The position numbers and the translations under genes were made by a program. Below the pieces are notes generated by a model. It was given only the letters and a program-made list of their open reading frames with translations. It was not told the origin of the DNA and did not search any database. This document shows positions 46,003-63,046 of a stretch of DNA of 64,000 bases, in pieces. This DNA comes from Candidatus Zhuqueibacterota bacterium. GTDB lineage: Bacteria; Zhuqueibacterota; Zhuqueibacteria; Thermofontimicrobiales; Thermofontimicrobiaceae. Each line of letters starts with the position of its first letter. The first letter of the stretch is position 1. The stretch is taken from the NCBI GenBank assembly GCA_049322915.1, contig JBMOPW010000013.1, positions 62,111-126,110 of the forward strand. Direction: 5' to 3'.

Positions 46003-48249
<2,247 letters not shown>

Positions 48250-48277: not shown

Positions 48278-48316
48278 AAAAAAGCCCGGTTTCACTCTCG
48301 AATCCGGGCTTTTTTT
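48278..48316. terminator. Bidirectional intrinsic terminator after maeB
   Basis: A6-GCCCGG...CCGGGC-T7. Confidence 0.8.
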
Positions 48317-48448
48317 GTTCGGCGATTTCTTCCACAGTTTTCAACCCGACTACGGTTGATTCCTCATCACCCCAGACCAGGGCCAGCGTGGGCTGGATAT
48401 TCTTCTCCATACGCGCGATCTGCTCGTGACTGGCCAGAAATTGTTTCA

Positions 48449-48945
48449 ACATGGATAAACAGGATGCACAGGATGAAACAAAATTCTGTTTATCCTGCCT
48501 ATCCATGTTCAATGGCTATAATGCGCGTAACCAGAATTTCCTTTCTATTCACATGGATGAACAGGATGGACAGGATGCGCAGGATGAAACAAAATCCTGT
48601 TTATCCTGCCTATCCATGTTCAATGGCTTTAATGCGCGTAACCAAAATTTCCTTTCTATTCACATGGATGAACAGGATGCGCAGGATGAAACAAAATCCT
48701 GTTTATCCTGTCTATCCATGTTCAATGGCTTTAATGCGCGTAACCAGAATTTCCTTTCTATTCACATGGATGAACAGGATGCATAGGATGAAACAAAATC
48801 CTGTTTATCCTGCCTATCCATGTTCAATGGCTTTAATGCGCGTAACCAGAATTTCCTTTCTATTCACATGGATGAACAGGATGCACAGGATGAATAAAAA
48901 TCCTTTTTATCCTGTCTATCCATGTTCAATGGCCTTACTTCGCGT
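48449..48945. repeat. Tandem array of five ~60-nt imperfect hairpins separated by four near-identical ~42-nt linkers
   Basis: Unit starts at 48449, 48551, 48662, 48764 and 48866 (periods 102, 111, 102, 102); ACATGGATGAACAGGATGCRCAGGAT-loop-ATCCTGTTTATCCTGYCTATCCATGT. Confidence 0.95.
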
Positions 48946-49328
48946 AAAGCGATTGTATTCCAGTTTCGGGTTGCCAAAGTTGATCAGCAAACCGACTTGA
49001 TTCCGGTGGCTTTCAGGTAATTAATAATCTGAGCCTGATTTTCTGGGGCGAGGGCTTTGACAGCCTTCAATTCAACGATCACCTTTCCATCGACATACAG
49101 GTCGGCGAAAAAATCACCCACACTTTCGCCTCTGAACACAACCTTAATCGGATGTTGTGCCACCACTGAAAGACCCTTTTGACGCAGGGCAATAAGCATC
49201 GCCTTCTCGTAAACCGATTCCAGAAATCCTGCGCCCAATTCATTGATCACTTCGAAGGCGCAACCAATCACCGTCTGGGTAATCTCCGAATATTTCAATA
49301 TATTATCACGTCTATCCCGATCATCCAT
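48916..49328 (-). pseudogene. GxxExxY protein (PD-(D/E)XK nuclease superfamily) with a 1-nt frameshift near 48998
   Basis: IGCAFEV-NELGAGFLESVYE, ADLYVDGKVIVELKA and AQIINYLKATG; the family tail VGLLINFGNPKLEY continues in another frame to TAG 48916. Confidence 0.85.
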
Positions 49329-49329
49329 G

Positions 49330-49545
49330 TCAATTCTCCTTTCCCACGATCGGCAGAAAACCGACAATATCGCGCTCGTCCTTCTCGATGTTATCGCCGA
49401 GCGAGTCGATGCCTGCTGGCTTGATGACAACGGACGGCTCAGCACGGATATTTGTAAGTGCATCGCCATCTTGGATGAATCGCCAGCCTGCGGTCTCGAG
49501 CCGTTTGTTTATCTTCATGCGGGCTGTGGTTTCTTTTTCGGGCGC
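49330..49545 (-). pseudogene. 5' fragment resembling a type I restriction R subunit (EcoEI-like HsdR) N-terminus
   Basis: KETTARMKINKRLETAGWRF...NIRAEP...LGDNIEK resembles the E-ARIKI-LL-AGW HsdR start from memory; SD AGGAGG followed by GCG instead of a start codon. Confidence 0.5.
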
Positions 49546-49790
49546 TCGGGTCCCTCCTTCAGTGCTGGTTGTAAAGCGGCATAGCGCGTAGCTCATTCGT
49601 GCGTTAGCTATCAGCGCGCTTTTTCACTGAGTTCTTGCGCATCAACAGGAGCGCCTTGTTGGACTTTTTGTATATCGTGAATAATAGTATCGGAGCTGCA
49701 CCTACTTGAATTCTGCACAATGGATGAGATCGATAGATTTGACGGAGCAGATGAAGATGCCGGGGCGAAACCTGTTAGCAAGTTCAGTCC

Positions 49791-50276: not shown

Positions 50277-51225
50277 CGAAACCTCCTCTAACTGAATTGA
50301 AAATCACTCCGCAGATCGAACAAGTGATTATTCACTTACTGCATATCACCCCGGATGAACCGAAATTAGCATAATAGAACTTCAGAAACAATCATCGCCT
50401 TTGGTGACATCGTTCCGTACTCATCCGAGGTTAATGCTGGGGACTATTTTTAAAAAAAAGCCTGCGATCCGGAGGGATAGCTCCGCTAATGGAACATCGA
50501 AAATCCTGCCGGGGTGTATGAGAATGAATATACAAAGATACTGCAGAAAATCAAGTTAATTTTTTCGTAAATCGCAACATGATCCCCTGTTGAATGAAAG
50601 GAGGATACGCGCCCTTTCAGCGCCCCAGGCTGAATCGCTCCGGCCACGCATCCAGGCTATCCTCTTCCACTCAACAGCGACGCCATCCGCCAGGACGATT
50701 GCGTCGCTGCCCTCCTTCCTCCCTACCCCGCGCTCCCGGCCTGCAATAAATCCCATTTTTCCTATTGATATTTTATTTTTATTTTTTTACATTGCCACTG
50801 ATTTTATTCAATGTTATAACCCCTTGAAAAGTTGACCATTCCAATCGTATGACCATTAGACATGTCTTTGCTTCGATACTGGCGACGCCTCATTTTTTTT
50901 CAGGTCACCAATTTTTGAAATTCATAGTCGGCATCGCCCCGACTCACTTGATTCACCCGACGTACATGACTGAAAATGGGCGGCGGCGAGGCAACCGGTG
51001 GAGCGACGGATGCATCGAAACGATTCTTTTTACCTGAATTTCTGAATCACAAATAAATAGCAATGACTGACTTTCAATGTTCGAACTGCTGTTCACGTCC
51101 TGCCTGACATCATGTTTTGCCGGAGTTTTGATTTTATCTCTTTGATTGTCGGAATTTGGTTGGCATTCGGTATGTGAAGAGTGGTACGCAACGAATTCAT
51201 TTTAGAAATACAGGTTTTACATTAC

Positions 51226-52275
51226 ATGATGACGTCACGGGAACGAGTCAAACGGGCGATCCATTTTCAACGGCCGGATCATATTCCCCACTATCTGCCC
51301 GACGGCGGAGAGAACGATATTCTCTGGGCGGCGCCGTGGACTGTGGGCGCGGGTCTCGGCCCGGCAGACATTCAGCCCTGGACCCACTGCGGCGACATCG
51401 ACCGGCGCATCGATGCCTGGGGCGTTACCTGGGAGCGCAGCGCGCAGCGCAACGGCGACATGGGCCAGGCGAAGCGGTATCCCATCGAGGACATCCGGCG
51501 CCACGGCCAGTATCGGTTTCCTGACCGAAACAATCCGGCGTACTATGTGGGACATAAAACTGCCATCGAAGATAACAACCGGTCGGCCAATCCCAAATAT
51601 GTCCTCGGCGTGATGGGCTTCAGTTCGCTGAACGAAGCAGTGCACAACATCCTGGGACTCGAAACCATGTTCATCAGCTACTACGAGCACCCCAATGAAG
51701 TGAAGTCGCTCATCGCCCGATTCGCTGACGCGCAGCGCGACTCCATTCGTCTGATGGCGGATTTGGGCTGCGATGGTGTGATGGGGTATGACGACTGGGG
51801 CCTGCAAAATCGGTTGATGATTCACAGGTCGCTGATCGAGGAATTTTTCATGCCGCATTATCGGGAGAACTGGGCGCTGGCGCACGCGCTGGGACTGGAT
51901 GTGTGGCTGCATTCCTGCGGCTGGATCATCGATCTGCTGCCGACTTTTTACGACGCAGGGCTCAATGTCATTCAAATGGATCAGCAGGAGAACATGGGGC
52001 TGGCCAATCTGGCGGAGCGGATCGGCGGTCGCTTGGCGTTCTGGTGTCCGGTGGACATTCAGAAGACATTGGCGCAGGGCTCGTCCGACGAAATCGAGCG
52101 GTATGTCCAAACCATGATGGCCACCATCGGCCGATTCAACGGCGGGTTGATCAGCATGGCCTACACCACGCCGGACGCGATCGATCTGGACCCGGTGCGC
52201 GTGGCTGCCATGTGCGCGGCGTTTCGGAAATACGGAATTTACGACGGCGCTGAAATCGGCATAGAACGCGGATGA
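51226..52275 (+). CDS. Uroporphyrinogen decarboxylase/MtaA-like TIM-barrel protein
   Basis: MTSRERV-PD, DAWGV-W, YDDWG-Q, WLHSCG and PVDIQ motifs. Confidence 0.85.
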   Translation: MMTSRERVKRAIHFQRPDHIPHYLPDGGENDILWAAPWTVGAGLGPADIQPWTHCGDIDRRIDAWGVTWERSAQRNGDMGQAKRYPIEDIRRHGQYRFPDRNNPAYYVGHKTAIEDNNRSANPKYVLGVMGFSSLNEAVHNILGLETMFISYYEHPNEVKSLIARFADAQRDSIRLMADLGCDGVMGYDDWGLQNRLMIHRSLIEEFFMPHYRENWALAHALGLDVWLHSCGWIIDLLPTFYDAGLNVIQMDQQENMGLANLAERIGGRLAFWCPVDIQKTLAQGSSDEIERYVQTMMATIGRFNGGLISMAYTTPDAIDLDPVRVAAMCAAFRKYGIYDGAEIGIERG

Positions 52276-52702
52276 CGCTGATGACACGGATTTTCACGGA
52301 TTTGAAAAGACTTTTTTTTAGTGAAATCGGAGATCACTGTGAAGAGATTTTTTTTCAGAATTTTTTTTCTGATAGCCTCCATCTCTCAAATCGTTGCCGT
52401 TGAGTTTTTTGTCGCCACAACCGGCAGTGATAGCAATCCCGGCACAAAAGAAAAACCGTTCGCGGCGACGGAATTTACGACAGCGTCCAAATCAGCATAG
52501 AACGCGGATGACGCTGATGACACGGATTTTCACGGATTTGAAAAGACTTTTTTTAGTGAAATTGGAGATCGCTGTGAAGAGATTTTTTTTCAGAATTTTT
52601 TTTCTGATAGCCTTCTACTCTCAAATCGTTGCCGCTGAGTTTTTTGTCGCCACAACCGGCAGCGATAAAAATCCCGGCACAAAAGAAAAACCGTTCGCGG
52701 CG
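52232..52702 (+). repeat. Diverged tandem duplication (236 + 235 bp) of a gene junction
   Basis: 52232-52467 versus 52468-52702, both ACGGAATTTACGAC...CCGTTCGCGGCG, with multiple substitutions and one indel. Confidence 0.92.
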
Positions 52703-54805
52703 CTGGAAAAGGCGCGCGACGCCGTTCGGAAAATGAAAGCGATCTCGGGGATCCCCGGCGAGGGGTTCACCATCTGGCTTCGGGGCGGGAGATATTTTCT
52801 TCACACAACATTCGAACTGAACGAAGGCGATTCCGGTTCTGAGGCCTCGCGCGTGGTGTACCGCGCCTATCCCGGCGAGCAGGTCTCCATCTCCGGTGGA
52901 AGAGCGCTGCCGGCGTCTCTGTTCAAAGCAGTGACCGATGAAAGAATTCTCAAACGGCTGCCGGACATCTCCCGCAGACATGTTTTGCAGGCCGATCTGA
53001 AATCATTCGGCATTGAAGATTTCGGCGCGCACGGACAATTCGGTCACGCCCTGCCGGTGGCGCCAGCGCCCCTGGAGCTGTTTTTCAATCACGACGTGAT
53101 GCCGTTGGCGAGATACCCCAACAGTAGCTTCATCCCCATGGGCCGGGTGATCGACGCCGGCTCGATTCCCCGCATCCGCGATTACGATCATATCCGCGGC
53201 GGCACCTTCGAATACACGGACGAGCGCCATTCGCGCTGGGTCGATTGTCCCGATGTCTGGCTGCAAGGCACATTCAAACACGGTTTTGCCGACGACAAGA
53301 TCAAAATCGAGACCATCGATACGACCCGCCGGCGCATCACATTGAGTACCCCGCATCTGTACGGGCTGGGCCACGGCGAGCCGCACACGCAATACGTCGC
53401 GCTCAATATTCCCGAAGAGCTGGACGCGCCCGGGGAATGGTACATGGACAGGCAGAGCGGCATTCTCTATTTTTGGCCGCCATCGGATATTGCCAATGCG
53501 GAAATTGCAGTATCCATGCTGGAAGCGCCGCTGGTGGCGATGGAGGGCGTTTCGTACCTCACATTCCGCGACATCATTTTTGAAGAGACGCGCGGCATGG
53601 GAATTTACATCGAGCGCGGCCGGGGCAATCTGATCGCAGGCTGCACCTTGCGCAACATCGGCACCTCCGCCATCTTCATGGGACAGGGCGCGCGGCAAAC
53701 CTTTCCGCACATCACGCACGATGATTACGAGGGCGTTCCTGTATCGCGGGAAATCGGCAATCTCCAGGGCCACATTTACAAATACACTGCCTGGGACCGC
53801 AAGGCAGGCTACCATCACGGGGTGTTGAGCTGCGATATTTACAATACCGGTTGCGGCGGCGTTTACCTCAGCGGCGGCAGAAAGAAGGACCTGATTCCCG
53901 GCCATTGTTTTGTGGAGAACTGCCGCATTCACGACTACAACCGGCGCAACAAATTTCTCTGGGCCGGCGTCAATGTCGATGGCTGCGGGAATCGCATCGC
54001 CCACAATGAAATCTACAATTCCGATTTTCAGGGCATTTACGTGCATGGCAATGACCATGTATTCGAGTACAATTCCATTCACCACACAGCGTTGAATTCC
54101 AACGACACATCGCCGTGGTACATTGGCCGCGACCCCAGCGACCGCGGCAATATCATCCGATACAACTTTTTTCACCACTGCGGGAATCCTGCGCACCGCT
54201 GGACCATGGGCGTCTATTTCGACGACGCCAGTTGCGACGCGCTGGTCGAGGGCAATGTCTTTTACAAGGTCGGGTCCTACGGCACAATTTACAGCAATGC
54301 CGGCTCCGATCTGGTCGTTCGCAACAATATCTTCGTCGCCGGATACGGCCCCGTGCTTCACATCAAATCCATGTGGTACGATTTCGCACTGGGCCAGAGG
54401 GATTATTTCTTCGGCGACGATGGCGTGTACCGGCGCCGGCTGACGCAGGAGGTGAATATCAAAGAACCGCCGTACAGCGTGCGGTATCCGGAACTGGTCA
54501 CGTGGCTGGATTTAATGGAGGATGGCGAGACATACGCCGGCATGTATCCCCGGCGAAACCTGTTCGAAAAGAACCTGATTTACAAATACGATCAGACCTA
54601 TGTCTACACCGGGGAATACGCCCGCTTTGACTTGCGTGACAATTTCATCGCGCTGGACGATCCCGGTTTCATCGATCTGGAAAATTTGAACCTGCAATTG
54701 AAAGACGATTCGATTGTCTATTCAAAGCTACCCGGATTTGAAAAGATACCGTTTGAAAAAATTGGCCTCTACGAGGATGAATTTCGGAACCGAATTAAGC
54801 AATAA
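52574..54805 (+). CDS. Secreted right-handed parallel beta-helix protein (pectin-lyase fold); start revised to GTG 52574
   Basis: SD GGAG, signal peptide, FFVATTGSDKNPGTKEKPF, LARYPN, ELDAPGEWY, many N-I-N-I rungs and GVYFDD. Confidence 0.85.
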   Translation: MKRFFFRIFFLIAFYSQIVAAEFFVATTGSDKNPGTKEKPFAALEKARDAVRKMKAISGIPGEGFTIWLRGGRYFLHTTFELNEGDSGSEASRVVYRAYPGEQVSISGGRALPASLFKAVTDERILKRLPDISRRHVLQADLKSFGIEDFGAHGQFGHALPVAPAPLELFFNHDVMPLARYPNSSFIPMGRVIDAGSIPRIRDYDHIRGGTFEYTDERHSRWVDCPDVWLQGTFKHGFADDKIKIETIDTTRRRITLSTPHLYGLGHGEPHTQYVALNIPEELDAPGEWYMDRQSGILYFWPPSDIANAEIAVSMLEAPLVAMEGVSYLTFRDIIFEETRGMGIYIERGRGNLIAGCTLRNIGTSAIFMGQGARQTFPHITHDDYEGVPVSREIGNLQGHIYKYTAWDRKAGYHHGVLSCDIYNTGCGGVYLSGGRKKDLIPGHCFVENCRIHDYNRRNKFLWAGVNVDGCGNRIAHNEIYNSDFQGIYVHGNDHVFEYNSIHHTALNSNDTSPWYIGRDPSDRGNIIRYNFFHHCGNPAHRWTMGVYFDDASCDALVEGNVFYKVGSYGTIYSNAGSDLVVRNNIFVAGYGPVLHIKSMWYDFALGQRDYFFGDDGVYRRRLTQEVNIKEPPYSVRYPELVTWLDLMEDGETYAGMYPRRNLFEKNLIYKYDQTYVYTGEYARFDLRDNFIALDDPGFIDLENLNLQLKDDSIVYSKLPGFEKIPFEKIGLYEDEFRNRIKQ

Positions 54806-62500: not shown

Positions 62501-62678
62501 CGATTGGTCGGCAGCTTTTGCCGCCGCTGAAAAGAAACAGGGCGCCGGGCATTGGCGGATATGTCAGGTCCAGCTCATGGACCGGCTTGAAGGCAATCCG
62601 GCAGCGACCATGTTTGCAATGAATTTATTGGAGACGCGACGTAACCGATCACAGGGTGATTTAAACAAAAACGGCTGA
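59556..62678 (+). CDS. Glycoside hydrolase family 2-like protein with C-terminal extension; no signal peptide; ORF track start is 59466
   Basis: FKGVDY-VFVN-H-G-F, LW-P-LY, FGMRSF, FLNG-LRGAN, CDRLGLM, INEP (acid/base) and GEFG (nucleophile). Confidence 0.85.
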   Translation: MTMPDIYADIAAKRFSEREKELIEPQPAQVPRRILPLDETPGLTRFPAFTKMDTWDALHAELESQRVRHSPYLENHAPDIESGRITTRLGSFDWRIESDADRSDFSSALRGDGPWEKVSIPHYGPPLGRAVTFYRTTFELTPAMLEKGALFISFKGVDYIAHVFVNNAFLGSHQGFFAPFQFEFTRHARPGENVLLVRVDNDFIHMGSRSESSETRYQGDKLYAATGCGYDDPAIGWHHCPPGMGIYQDVFVDARTRLHLHDIFVRPLPESESAEVWVEIFNCDVNPTKVLLELSLYGQNFQQVIFEQLTYQPAGIHVPGLGDVAKRTGKEIPLLMGPGVNLLKIPIAIPAPRLWEPASPWLYQIQVRLLDEGGHILDAGSRQFGMRSFRMDDQNEPRGRYFLNGRPIKLRGANTMGHLQQCVLKRNWDQLRDDILLAKICNMNFLRLTQRPVQPEIYDFCDRLGLMTQTDLPLFGVLRRNQFSEAVRQAEEMERLIRNHACAIQISYINEPFPNAMDEPHRHLLRGELQHFFEAADSVVKMNNPDRVIKAVDGDYDPPGPGLPDNHCYCGWYNGHGLDLGKLHKGYWQKVKPGWNYGCGEFGAEGLDPVDVMRTYYPREWLPQNPDQEKSWTPNNIVMAQTGRFHYLWFDTPHTLKDWVAASLAHQAWVTRLMTQAFRRNNGMHSFAIHLFIDAFPSGWMKAIMDVERRPKPAYFAYRDALTQVMVSLRSDRTAFFSGETIAVEVWICNDLSEPIADAALAYTVELENTPIHNGTTRLDVPAFQSVCHGHLQFRAPDVSARQRLTVRLAVSDRSGQALHTTEAAFGIFKPMERAARPAVHIISTHPERLAQFARSLGLDPAGDQTLAAPQRILIDDFSTFRAQQQSIQSAVQEGAIAIFFELPPGTHQIAGTEIVVTECGMGARHFVSRATHHPMVQEFLPEDFKFWYDAGVDYPTPLLYSTFTAPGWTPILTSGNGDWQGDWSAAFAAAEKKQGAGHWRICQVQLMDRLEGNPAATMFAMNLLETRRNRSQGDLNKNG

Positions 62679-63046
62679 AGCGTTTTCAGGAGTTCTTTTG
62701 GGATGATTATAACACCACGATGAATTGTAGTGTTAGTTCAACTCCACTTTGAATCAACACCATGATTCCCAGTATTGTCTCCTTAAAAAATATGGAACAC
62801 TGGGCAATACATCGCGGTGTTTACTGCATGAATGAAACATGTCCGCTGCCGTTTCACGGCTTCTCTATACATCCCGTGATCGGTTACGGCGTGACGTCTG
62901 TAAAATGGCATTTTAGAATTCTTTGTGGCGTGGTGACTTAACGGCAAGAAAACATGCCTGAATAGTGACAACATTAGAAGATAAAAGTATATAAAAATCC
63001 ACTTTCAAATTCACCATTAACTTCACACATGGTCAGAGGAAAAAAC

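Follow-up and report, generated by a model that had tools for sequence, protein, structure and literature searches.

How does a small nuclease gene come to end inside a row of hairpins that carry copies of its own tail? We address this question for a 64,000-nucleotide stretch of contig JBMOPW010000013.1 (positions 62,111 to 126,110; assembly GCA_049322915.1) of a Candidatus Zhuqueibacterota bacterium. Within this stretch, hereafter the window, a gene of the GxxExxY family, whose proteins have a PD-(D/E)XK fold, runs into five tandem hairpins. A preliminary description, made from the sequence alone, had read the locus as a mobile nuclease-and-palindrome system resembling repetitive extragenic palindromic (REP) sequences and their REP-associated tyrosine transposase (RAYT). 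In our analysis, the region is probably what remains of a type I restriction-modification (R-M) operon that was acquired horizontally and then wrecked, and its survivor a selfish cassette from between the operon's genes, accompanied by a locally copied hairpin array. The window copy of the cassette is dead. The cassette type is widespread and mobile, and apparently undescribed; the searchable literature returned nothing on repeats around GxxExxY genes.

A frameshifted nuclease gene between remnants of an R-M operon

The locus comprises the following features, given in the order in which the minus strand is read.

49333–49521, minus strand: N-terminal stub of hsdR, 63 codons, identified by homology; its stop codon TGA (49330–49332) lies one base before the cassette ATG
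49305–49329, minus strand: degenerate forward arm, a match to the arm consensus, holding the start codon (ATG 49326–49328); translated MDDRDRRD
48984–49328, minus strand: present GxxExxY (PF13366/TIGR04256) open reading frame (ORF) of 114 codons, closed by a premature TGA
48993–49001, minus strand: frameshift site, one base absent in comparison with relatives (locus L023, alignment A2)
48916–48996, minus strand: displaced 3′ end of the GxxExxY ORF (VGLLINFGNPKLEYNRFTRSKAIEHG*), matching the conserved C-terminus of relatives
48867–48924: hairpin 5, the 3′ palindrome that belongs to the cassette itself, made of a forward arm, an 8-nt loop and a reverse arm
48823–48866, minus strand: linker 4, whose first 16–18 nt are a post-hairpin leader (GTGAATAGAAAGGAAATT) and whose remainder copies the final ~26 nt of a GxxExxY ORF
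48765–48822: hairpin 4
48721–48764, minus strand: linker 3
48663–48720: hairpin 3
48619–48662, minus strand: linker 2
48552–48618: hairpin 2, 67 nt, with one additional 9-nt module
48508–48551, minus strand: linker 1
48450–48507: hairpin 1, the outermost, with extended arms TTCAACATGG...CCATGTTGAA
48363–48434, minus strand: C-terminal stub of an hsdM/S fusion (ASHEQIARMEKNIQPTLALVWGDE), identified by homology, starting within ~15 nt of hairpin 1

The two stubs were recognized by comparison with relatives, in which the cassette's neighbours were named by their Pfam domains, ResIII+HSDR_N and N6_Mtase+Methylase_S. Residues 1–56 of the hsdR stub align to residues 27–82 of an 864-residue ResIII+HSDR_N protein (52% identity, E 9e-19), the gene of which sits directly upstream of the cassette in that relative. 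The stub finds a match in five of five relatives' genomes (E 2e-11 to 5e-15), each time in a long open frame at the cassette locus, and in one of them (locus L098 of genome G042) the hsdR frame ends 12 nt ahead of the GxxExxY gene according to its ORF list. On the other side, the hsdM/S stub matches the last 25 residues of an 814-residue N6_Mtase+Methylase_S protein with 58% identity over 24 residues (E 2e-7). Its matches in four of the five genomes are weak (E 0.002–0.023), two of them, in G043 and G044, falling near the end of a long open frame.

Intact relatives have the order hsdR, GxxExxY cassette of ~0.5 kb, hsdM/S fusion. The window retains HsdR homology upstream and HsdM/S homology downstream of the cassette on the same strand, in place of intact hsdR, hsdM and hsdS. 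Missing are about 800 codons from hsdR and about 780 from hsdM/S, and each loss stops no more than some 20 nt from where the cassette or its hairpins begin. A search of the bacterium's own genome for this type of hsdM gave no match at E <= 1e-40. Contigs of a cave-metagenome run (X2) carry pieces of both stubs and of the GxxExxY gene with 2–10 differences per 150–185 nt, so the broken state is common to a related population. The preliminary description was right about the repeat and the gene and overlooked the hsd stubs beside them. That the two small flanking ORFs might be halves of one split gene was considered and ruled out, since their matches go to two proteins, HsdR and HsdM/S.

The nuclease gene was correctly named in that description. 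The minus-strand ORF at 48987–49328 matches PF13366/PDDEXK_3 (E 9.7e-35, 119.9 bits against a cut-off of 22), which is its sole Pfam match, and TIGR04256, ‘GxxExxY protein’ (E 6.7e-34, 116.7 bits against a cut-off of 35). Profile coverage runs from position 2 to 99 of 117, short of a complete domain in one frame. Comparison with relatives places the lost base directly after the ATC codon at 48999–49001, and the out-of-frame C-terminus, VGLLINFGNPKLEYNRFTRSKAIEHG*, ends at the TAG at 48916–48918, within hairpin 5. The motif residues are kept: GFLESVY, the aspartate in FFADL, and VELK align to the invariant columns E37, Y40, D76, E86, L87 and K88 of alignment A2. With the motif glutamate, the tyrosine and D...ELK all present, the gene was a normal family member until a single frameshift. 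Assembled contigs of run X1 in the Logan collection reproduce positions 48856–49650, frameshift site included, with zero differences or indels and no alternative allele at the frameshift, although X1 is possibly the source sample and its contigs hence not independent of the assembly.

Structural comparison places the protein only broadly. No solved structure was matched by sequence, a profile search gave one match at E 0.18, and all Foldseek matches were weak and generic to the nuclease fold (Cas4 SSO0001, lambda exonuclease and Hjc; template-modelling scores 0.4–0.56). A survey of the superfamily enters the function of PF13366 as ‘Unknown’ and remarks on ‘Multiple transfers’ (PMC3424549).

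Arms that bound and encode the ends of the gene

The position of the window gene's start and stop inside repeat arms, as the preliminary description had it, proves to be a property of the whole subfamily. We assembled a set of 80 loci, kept from 124 confirmed relatives among 292 candidate stretches. The relatives reach 79% amino-acid identity and come from Planctomycetota, Chloroflexota, Acidobacteriota, Nitrospirota, Armatimonadota, Bacteroidota, Verrucomicrobiota, Proteobacteria and others; an hsdM of the type described above starts 3–697 nt past the GxxExxY stop in 20 of the 80 loci. Arms were scored as CATGGATnnnCAGGATnnnCAGGAT with at most 3 mismatches in its 19 specified bases. A forward arm overlaps the start codon at 50/80 loci and the stop codon at 33/80, and a reverse-complement arm lies within 160 nt past the stop at 53/80; start arm and downstream reverse arm occur together at 40/80. 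Control windows lying over 350 nt away from the gene gave a background of 15/1600 and 56/1600. Arms thus co-occur with the protein subfamily of the window gene. The start arm of the window gene (CATGGATGATCGGGATAGACGTGAT, 49305–49329) equals the consensus at 16 of 19 specified bases and is 80% complementary over 30 nt to the arm at 48547–48576.

The typical cassette in relatives has an ORF that starts inside a 25-nt arm and stops inside a second copy of it, usually followed by an inverted copy, which completes a palindrome of ~60 nt. Both ends of the protein are therefore translated arms: the ORF begins with MD in 50/80 loci, mostly as MDxQDxQD (MDDRDRRD in the window), and many ORFs end in ..KHG. 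In an AlphaFold model with a mean predicted local distance difference test score (pLDDT) of 90.1, the arm-encoded residues 1–8 and 133–137 are disordered, scoring under 50. At the outer edge, CATG ends 40 of the 53 reverse arms, and CATGGAT stands at the start codon in 44/80 loci.

Debris of the cassette is found alongside intact copies, and the class degenerates into hairpins, mini-cassettes and arrays. Gene-less hairpins lie at other gene borders of the respective operons at L080 and L094, and tandem arrays with GGAT hairpins accompany the relatives at 8 of 80 loci. At L025 (1690–1960), just downstream of an intact cassette, there is an internally deleted mini-cassette consisting of the leader, the start arm and the first 12 codons joined straight to the last ~16 codons, then an arm.

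Other GxxExxY subfamilies have arms of other sequence. The 21 PF13366 matches in the bacterium's own genome form several subfamilies, and each of these has a module to itself, ACGCGGATG, CTCTGCGTC and AATTCGCGT being examples; in four related genomes, inverted module arms of still other sequences were seen by eye at 8 of 9 GxxExxY loci. These differences by subfamily appear to agree with the co-variation of arm and protein proposed in the preliminary description. At L113 (contig C231 of genome G005), which belongs to another GxxExxY subfamily with CACGAA-type modules, about four tandem half-arm units of ~36 nt stand upstream of the gene.

Empty and occupied slots in the same operon

The gap between hsdR and hsdM can be compared among operons with and without a cassette. 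Among 401 Chloroflexota genomes searched for this type of hsdM, 17 had it, and the 900 nt upstream could be read in 15 usable cases. Four of these operons have an empty slot, with the hsdR stop followed after 6–22 nt by the hsdM ATG. In four others, a GxxExxY cassette fills the slot. Two of these have CATGGAT-type arms; the remaining two, L133 and L134, differ from them in both module family and protein subfamily, the modules at L134 being read as CACGAA-type. Non-coding inserts of 75–80 nt occupy the slot in 2/15 cases, one of them a hairpin of a different module family; 3/15 have another small ORF pair, and 2/15 have no hsdR tail within reach. The presence of two cassette families in one gap, beside empty gaps, is direct evidence of insertion: the class behaves as insertable DNA and settles in the short spaces that separate genes of an operon. 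This upholds, for the class, the mobility that the preliminary description had claimed for the locus; in the window itself the gene is frameshifted and the array local.

At some loci the fit between cassette and operon extends to single codons. Two loci, L130 (the same record as L051) and L131, use the CATG at the outer edge of the reverse arm as the hsdM start codon, and the nuclease ORF of L131 continues through that arm to a stop within an ATGTTAG overlap with the hsdM start. This layout is in the minority, at 1 of 44 reverse arms of the first set.

Within the window's own phylum, the operon occurs in 4/167 genomes, one with the cassette and three with other small slot genes (by eye). Small genes of other kinds fill the hsdR–hsdM gap in L099, L101 and L102 (own phylum) and in L128, L129 and L132 (Chloroflexota); by eye, they include a nucleotidyltransferase-like pair, IS200/RAYT-like ORFs, and a conserved pair of ORFs of ~110 and ~90 residues.

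A hairpin array probably copied in place

The array spans 48450–48924 and is built of ~58-nt hairpins, made of 9-nt CATGGAT/CAGGAT modules, alternating with 44-nt linkers. Tandem Repeats Finder reports a period of 102, with 4.7 copies and 89% matches, over 48459–48947, and a repeat search found five copies spaced 9/102/102/102 nt, of which units 3–5 are 94–97% alike. The 9-nt offset in the spacing is the extra module in unit 2 (111 nt vs 102). When the five hairpins are folded as RNA, their energies range from −26.9 to −33.5 kcal/mol (z = −4.75 to −6.82); none of 200 shuffles equalled any of the five. The five tandem hairpins, the additional module and the placement of start and stop inside arms were thus described correctly at every point that we checked. 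The outer ends of the element read CATGGAT...ATCCATG, with TTGA on both sides by eye.

The preliminary description had also seen in each array unit a copy of the element's end, and the linkers bear this out: the end of the linker is identical to the gene tail at 20 of 26 nt, an alignment score reached by 0 of 2000 shuffled linkers. The leader, GTGAATAGAAAGGAAATT, which makes up the first 16–18 nt of the linker, resembles the post-hairpin sequence in L011, L017 and L023, where it lies just before the start of the next gene. Among themselves the four linkers are nearly alike, two of them each being 1 base off and no difference exceeding 1–2 bases. Linkers that are so alike among themselves, yet share only 20/26 positions with the gene tail, fit a single founding duplication followed by local amplification.

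Genome-wide comparison gives the same picture. The unit, its hairpin and linker, the gene and the two flanks were compared by BLAST with all 45 contigs that make up the 6.25-Mb genome; this locus alone was found, every other hit being a chance match of 14–20 nt. CAGGAT-N3-CAGGAT occurs 13 times on both strands of the whole genome. Confinement to a single locus marks the array as a local duplication without REP-like dispersal.

Arrays beside relatives differ in their make-up. At L015, on a 34.8-kb contig, five copies of 74 nt, almost pure hairpin, stand beside an intact gene for a 143-residue protein; at L023, 2.4 copies of 149 nt combine the hairpin with the hsdM/S tail; and L045, L049 and L069 have further arrays with different periods. 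Since the unit borders vary by locus, a non-specific duplication, such as palindrome-prone slippage or unequal recombination, fits better than a site-specific reaction. At L023 (2290–2660; Chloroflexia), the hairpin cuts hsdM/S after about 200 codons and is followed by the 2.4 tandem copies of hairpin plus the last 29 hsdM/S codons.

From these observations, the following course of events can be proposed. hsdR would have been reduced to its initial ~56 codons and hsdM/S to its final ~25, and the nuclease ORF would have lost one base. One 102-nt block, in which the final ~26 nt of a GxxExxY ORF are joined to the palindrome and to ~16 nt of the leader downstream, would have been copied in tandem to five units. 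One illegitimate duplication would have founded the array, and slippage during replication, or else unequal recombination, would have enlarged it at the palindromes, with one 9-nt module slipping into unit 2. For the cassette class in general, the arms are probably the DNA sites at which it is cut, copied and moved, with the GxxExxY nuclease as a candidate for the cutting enzyme. The palindromes may have made the neighbourhood prone to duplication and deletion, which would account for the array and possibly for both hsd deletions. The array would then owe nothing to transposition, and it is probably functionless now.

Elsewhere in the window, at 52232–52650, a module arm has likewise been duplicated along with the ends of genes. 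There, a 235/236-nt tandem duplication, 94% identical, spans the end of the ORF at 51181–52275, a lone ACGCGGATG-type 9-nt module arm and the start of the ORF at 52394–54805.

Alternative explanations

The locus could instead be an active, or recently active, RAYT/REP-like system, in which the GxxExxY protein recognizes its own arms, amplifies its ends and makes the array. Several features invite this idea: arms at both gene ends, the element's end carried in the array units, arrays beside relatives (8/80 loci, with the intact gene of L015 among them), flanking deletions that both stop at arm edges, and a similar hairpin/hsdM-S-tail junction in L023. We nevertheless regard it as unlikely. The hairpin and unit have no copies outside the locus, the window gene is frameshifted, array unit boundaries vary among loci, and the enzyme is of the PD-(D/E)XK type and not an HUH nuclease; for this locus the RAYT/REP analogy fails both on dispersal and on the enzyme.

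A role at the level of RNA, with hairpins serving as processing sites, stabilizers or attenuators in operon transcripts, the array as a structured RNA and the link to the gene as secondary, draws on the stable folds, on the position of the hairpins between genes of one operon on the coding strand, and on the overlap of ORF stop and hsdM start in L131, which looks like translational coupling. It seems to us decidedly improbable. Among the 16 of 80 loci that passed the hairpin filter, the sense strand folded better in 5 and the antisense strand in 8, with 3 ties, and G-U pairs numbered 25 against 27. The GGAT/ATCC core is conserved in sequence while the 3-nt spacers are often unpaired, and the best match in Rfam 15, to a microRNA hairpin model, scored 31 bits against a gathering score of 63. 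A DNA-level role fits the absence of a coding-strand folding preference and of a known RNA family better, and the structured RNA product suggested in the preliminary description finds no backing here.

That the five units are an assembly artefact of one or two hairpins is suggested by short-read contigs, which fail to bridge the array, and by Logan unitigs, which break inside it. This can be set aside as highly improbable: the units bear substitutions of their own, unit 2 has its extra module, comparable arrays accompany 8/80 relatives' loci (at least L015 on a 34.8-kb contig), and unitig depth within the array rises to about 3.7x that of the flanks. In the contigs of X1, where the array is split into short pieces, depth reaches 253x as against 65–71x in the flanks.

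Four points weigh against a wrecked operon with a passively copied array. Under random decay, neither deletions that end beside the arms nor the L023 coincidence would be expected; there, in an unrelated Chloroflexia locus, the hairpin/hsdM-S-tail junction lies within about 9 nt of its equivalent in the window. Together these hint that the arms themselves promote breakage or recombination, which is nearer to the idea of an active element. Slippage as the maker of the array is a supposition of ours, to which a nuclease-driven process would be the alternative. The copy number of five rests on the assembly, as no contig in runs X1–X4 bridges the array. Lastly, the window locus is without a known empty-site allele, so decay in place and arrival as an already broken fragment look alike. 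The preliminary description had pointed to the region downstream of maeB as the place to seek such alleles. In the maeB-adjacent regions of five relatives, tblastn with six neighbouring window proteins found only maeB, and no empty site could be read; in a same-genus relative, maeB is followed by a terminator and an unrelated gene, with synteny absent beyond. Even so, the reading as operon wreckage around a selfish cassette remains the one we favour.

A bolder proposal goes beyond both the wrecked operon and the RAYT/REP analogy. GxxExxY proteins might be the mobilizing enzymes of a new class of miniature cassettes, with the nuclease binding arrays of CAGGAT modules and cutting at their outer edge. 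The basis for edge cutting is the CATG at the ends of reverse arms, the CATGGAT at start codons and the CATG that serves, at two loci, as the next gene's start. We hold this to be rather doubtful. If true, it would explain the insertion into short gaps before operon genes, the deletions that stop at arms and the tandem arrays of end plus hairpin, and the window locus would be a fossil record of all three activities rather than of passive decay.

A second GxxExxY subfamily as probable passenger of a transposable element

The same genome contains a 584-bp element, family A, whose only ORF is a GxxExxY gene of a second subfamily. Five complete copies, together with ten left and ten right ends at contig borders, make about 15 copies, mostly 97–100% identical. 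Many assembly breaks of this genome fall in family A. The complete copies lie at the following positions.

C14:373346–373929 (L007:147–730)
C26:198878–199461
C34:463781–464364
C26:132725–133306
C7:98780–99428

The ends of family A are terminal inverted repeats (TIRs) of 16–17 bp (GTAACCGATCACAGGG), and inside them inverted GACAGGATAACAGGATG arms surround the ORF. At 31 TIR pairs, an 8-bp target duplication was perfect in 11 and present at 7/8 in a further 8; a shifted control gave 0/31 at 6 or more. Family A thus has both the TIRs and the target-site duplications (TSDs) of a transposable element. Gene-less elements of 148, 247 and 267 bp share its TIRs, and those of 267 bp share the inner arms as well; one 247-bp element lies in the window at 62641–62887, with flanks that match at 6/8. 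The same TIR bounds gene-less, GTAACCG-ended miniature inverted-repeat transposable elements (MITEs) in 19/21 genomes of the order, at up to 224 sites, against 0–1 with a reversed pattern as control; copies in genome G015 measure 370–470 bp. In the same-genus relative, family A is nearly absent.

At seven family A sites, a 65-nt palindromic insert with 12-nt inverted ends (CCCCGTGTAATA...) breaks the ORF within the GxxExxY motif codons.

C7:26
C7:98996
C14:1092116
C15:16750
C16:323545
C37:56
C38:7888

The copies with the insert, which is absent elsewhere in the genome, are 97–99% identical to the others and have multiplied all the same. In four related genomes, GxxExxY genes have arms without family A TIRs. 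Family A was considered as proof of a GxxExxY transposase and downgraded on account of the TIR-sharing gene-less MITEs, the TIR-less GxxExxY genes and the multiplied copies with a broken ORF. We argue that its cassette is a passenger in a MITE moved by another enzyme. An autonomous partner was sought in the bacterium's own genome: there was no match to the IS66 family, and small contigs had transposase-looking ORFs by eye, none with family A ends. A 3.6-kb TIR pair considered for this part is a chance pair, which encloses apparent sugar-transporter genes (by eye).

Relation to known systems

REP sequences and REPINs (paired REPs) with their RAYT are organized as a small gene flanked by inverted palindromic repeats, with gene-less copies and hairpin clusters, and the cassette resembles them in all these respects. 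Unlike RAYT, an HUH enzyme of the Y1 type, the cassette enzyme belongs to the PD-(D/E)XK group; the hairpin family is undispersed in the genome, and the arms, each a row of 9-nt modules, take in the start and stop codons and become part of the protein. Intervening sequences of 23S rRNA genes that bear an ORF are likewise small ORFs enclosed by a long stem formed from their two ends, and they too leave the host transcription unit undestroyed. The cassette differs from them in having a protein-coding operon as host and a GxxExxY nuclease as its ORF.

Free-standing homing endonuclease genes of the seg/mob type lie between phage genes and are not known to have bounding inverted-repeat arms. The cassette shares with them a small nuclease gene, a short intergenic gap in a conserved operon, and presence or absence at the same site (4 slots empty and 4 occupied of 15). 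Its inverted-repeat arms and nuclease family set it apart. MITEs with TIRs, TSDs and a passenger gene find their counterpart in family A, with its 584 bp, TIRs, 8-bp duplication and gene-less relatives, and not in the window cassette, which is without family A terminal repeats. The rlo genes of Campylobacter are reportedly small, unrelated genes inside type I R-M loci, and are said to have been described without bounding module arms or a GxxExxY cassette. In both cases, the gap between hsd genes collects small foreign genes, here GxxExxY cassettes or other small ORFs.

The PF13366 family is large and found across phyla, and one of its subfamilies can now be seen as a compact cassette with start and stop codons built into its own arms. 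Its presence and absence between the same two operon genes, together with the debris of hairpins, mini-cassettes and arrays, give a testable handle on the role of the nuclease. If the nuclease moves the cassette, a transposition-like mechanism would operate on a restriction-type fold. For annotation, MDxQDxQD N-termini, "hypothetical" ORFs across hairpin arrays and broken hsd genes can be explained as cassette debris. The worth of the window copy is that of a fossil in which the effects of such cassettes on neighbouring DNA can be clearly read.

Between maeB (46003–48249, plus strand) and the R-M remnant lies one further feature.

48278–48315: G+C-rich hairpin with A/T runs

A promoter and terminator scan of this part yielded only a short terminator-like site, at 48304–48322 on the plus strand, with overall counts close to those of shuffled sequence. 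The hairpin is probably a two-way terminator.

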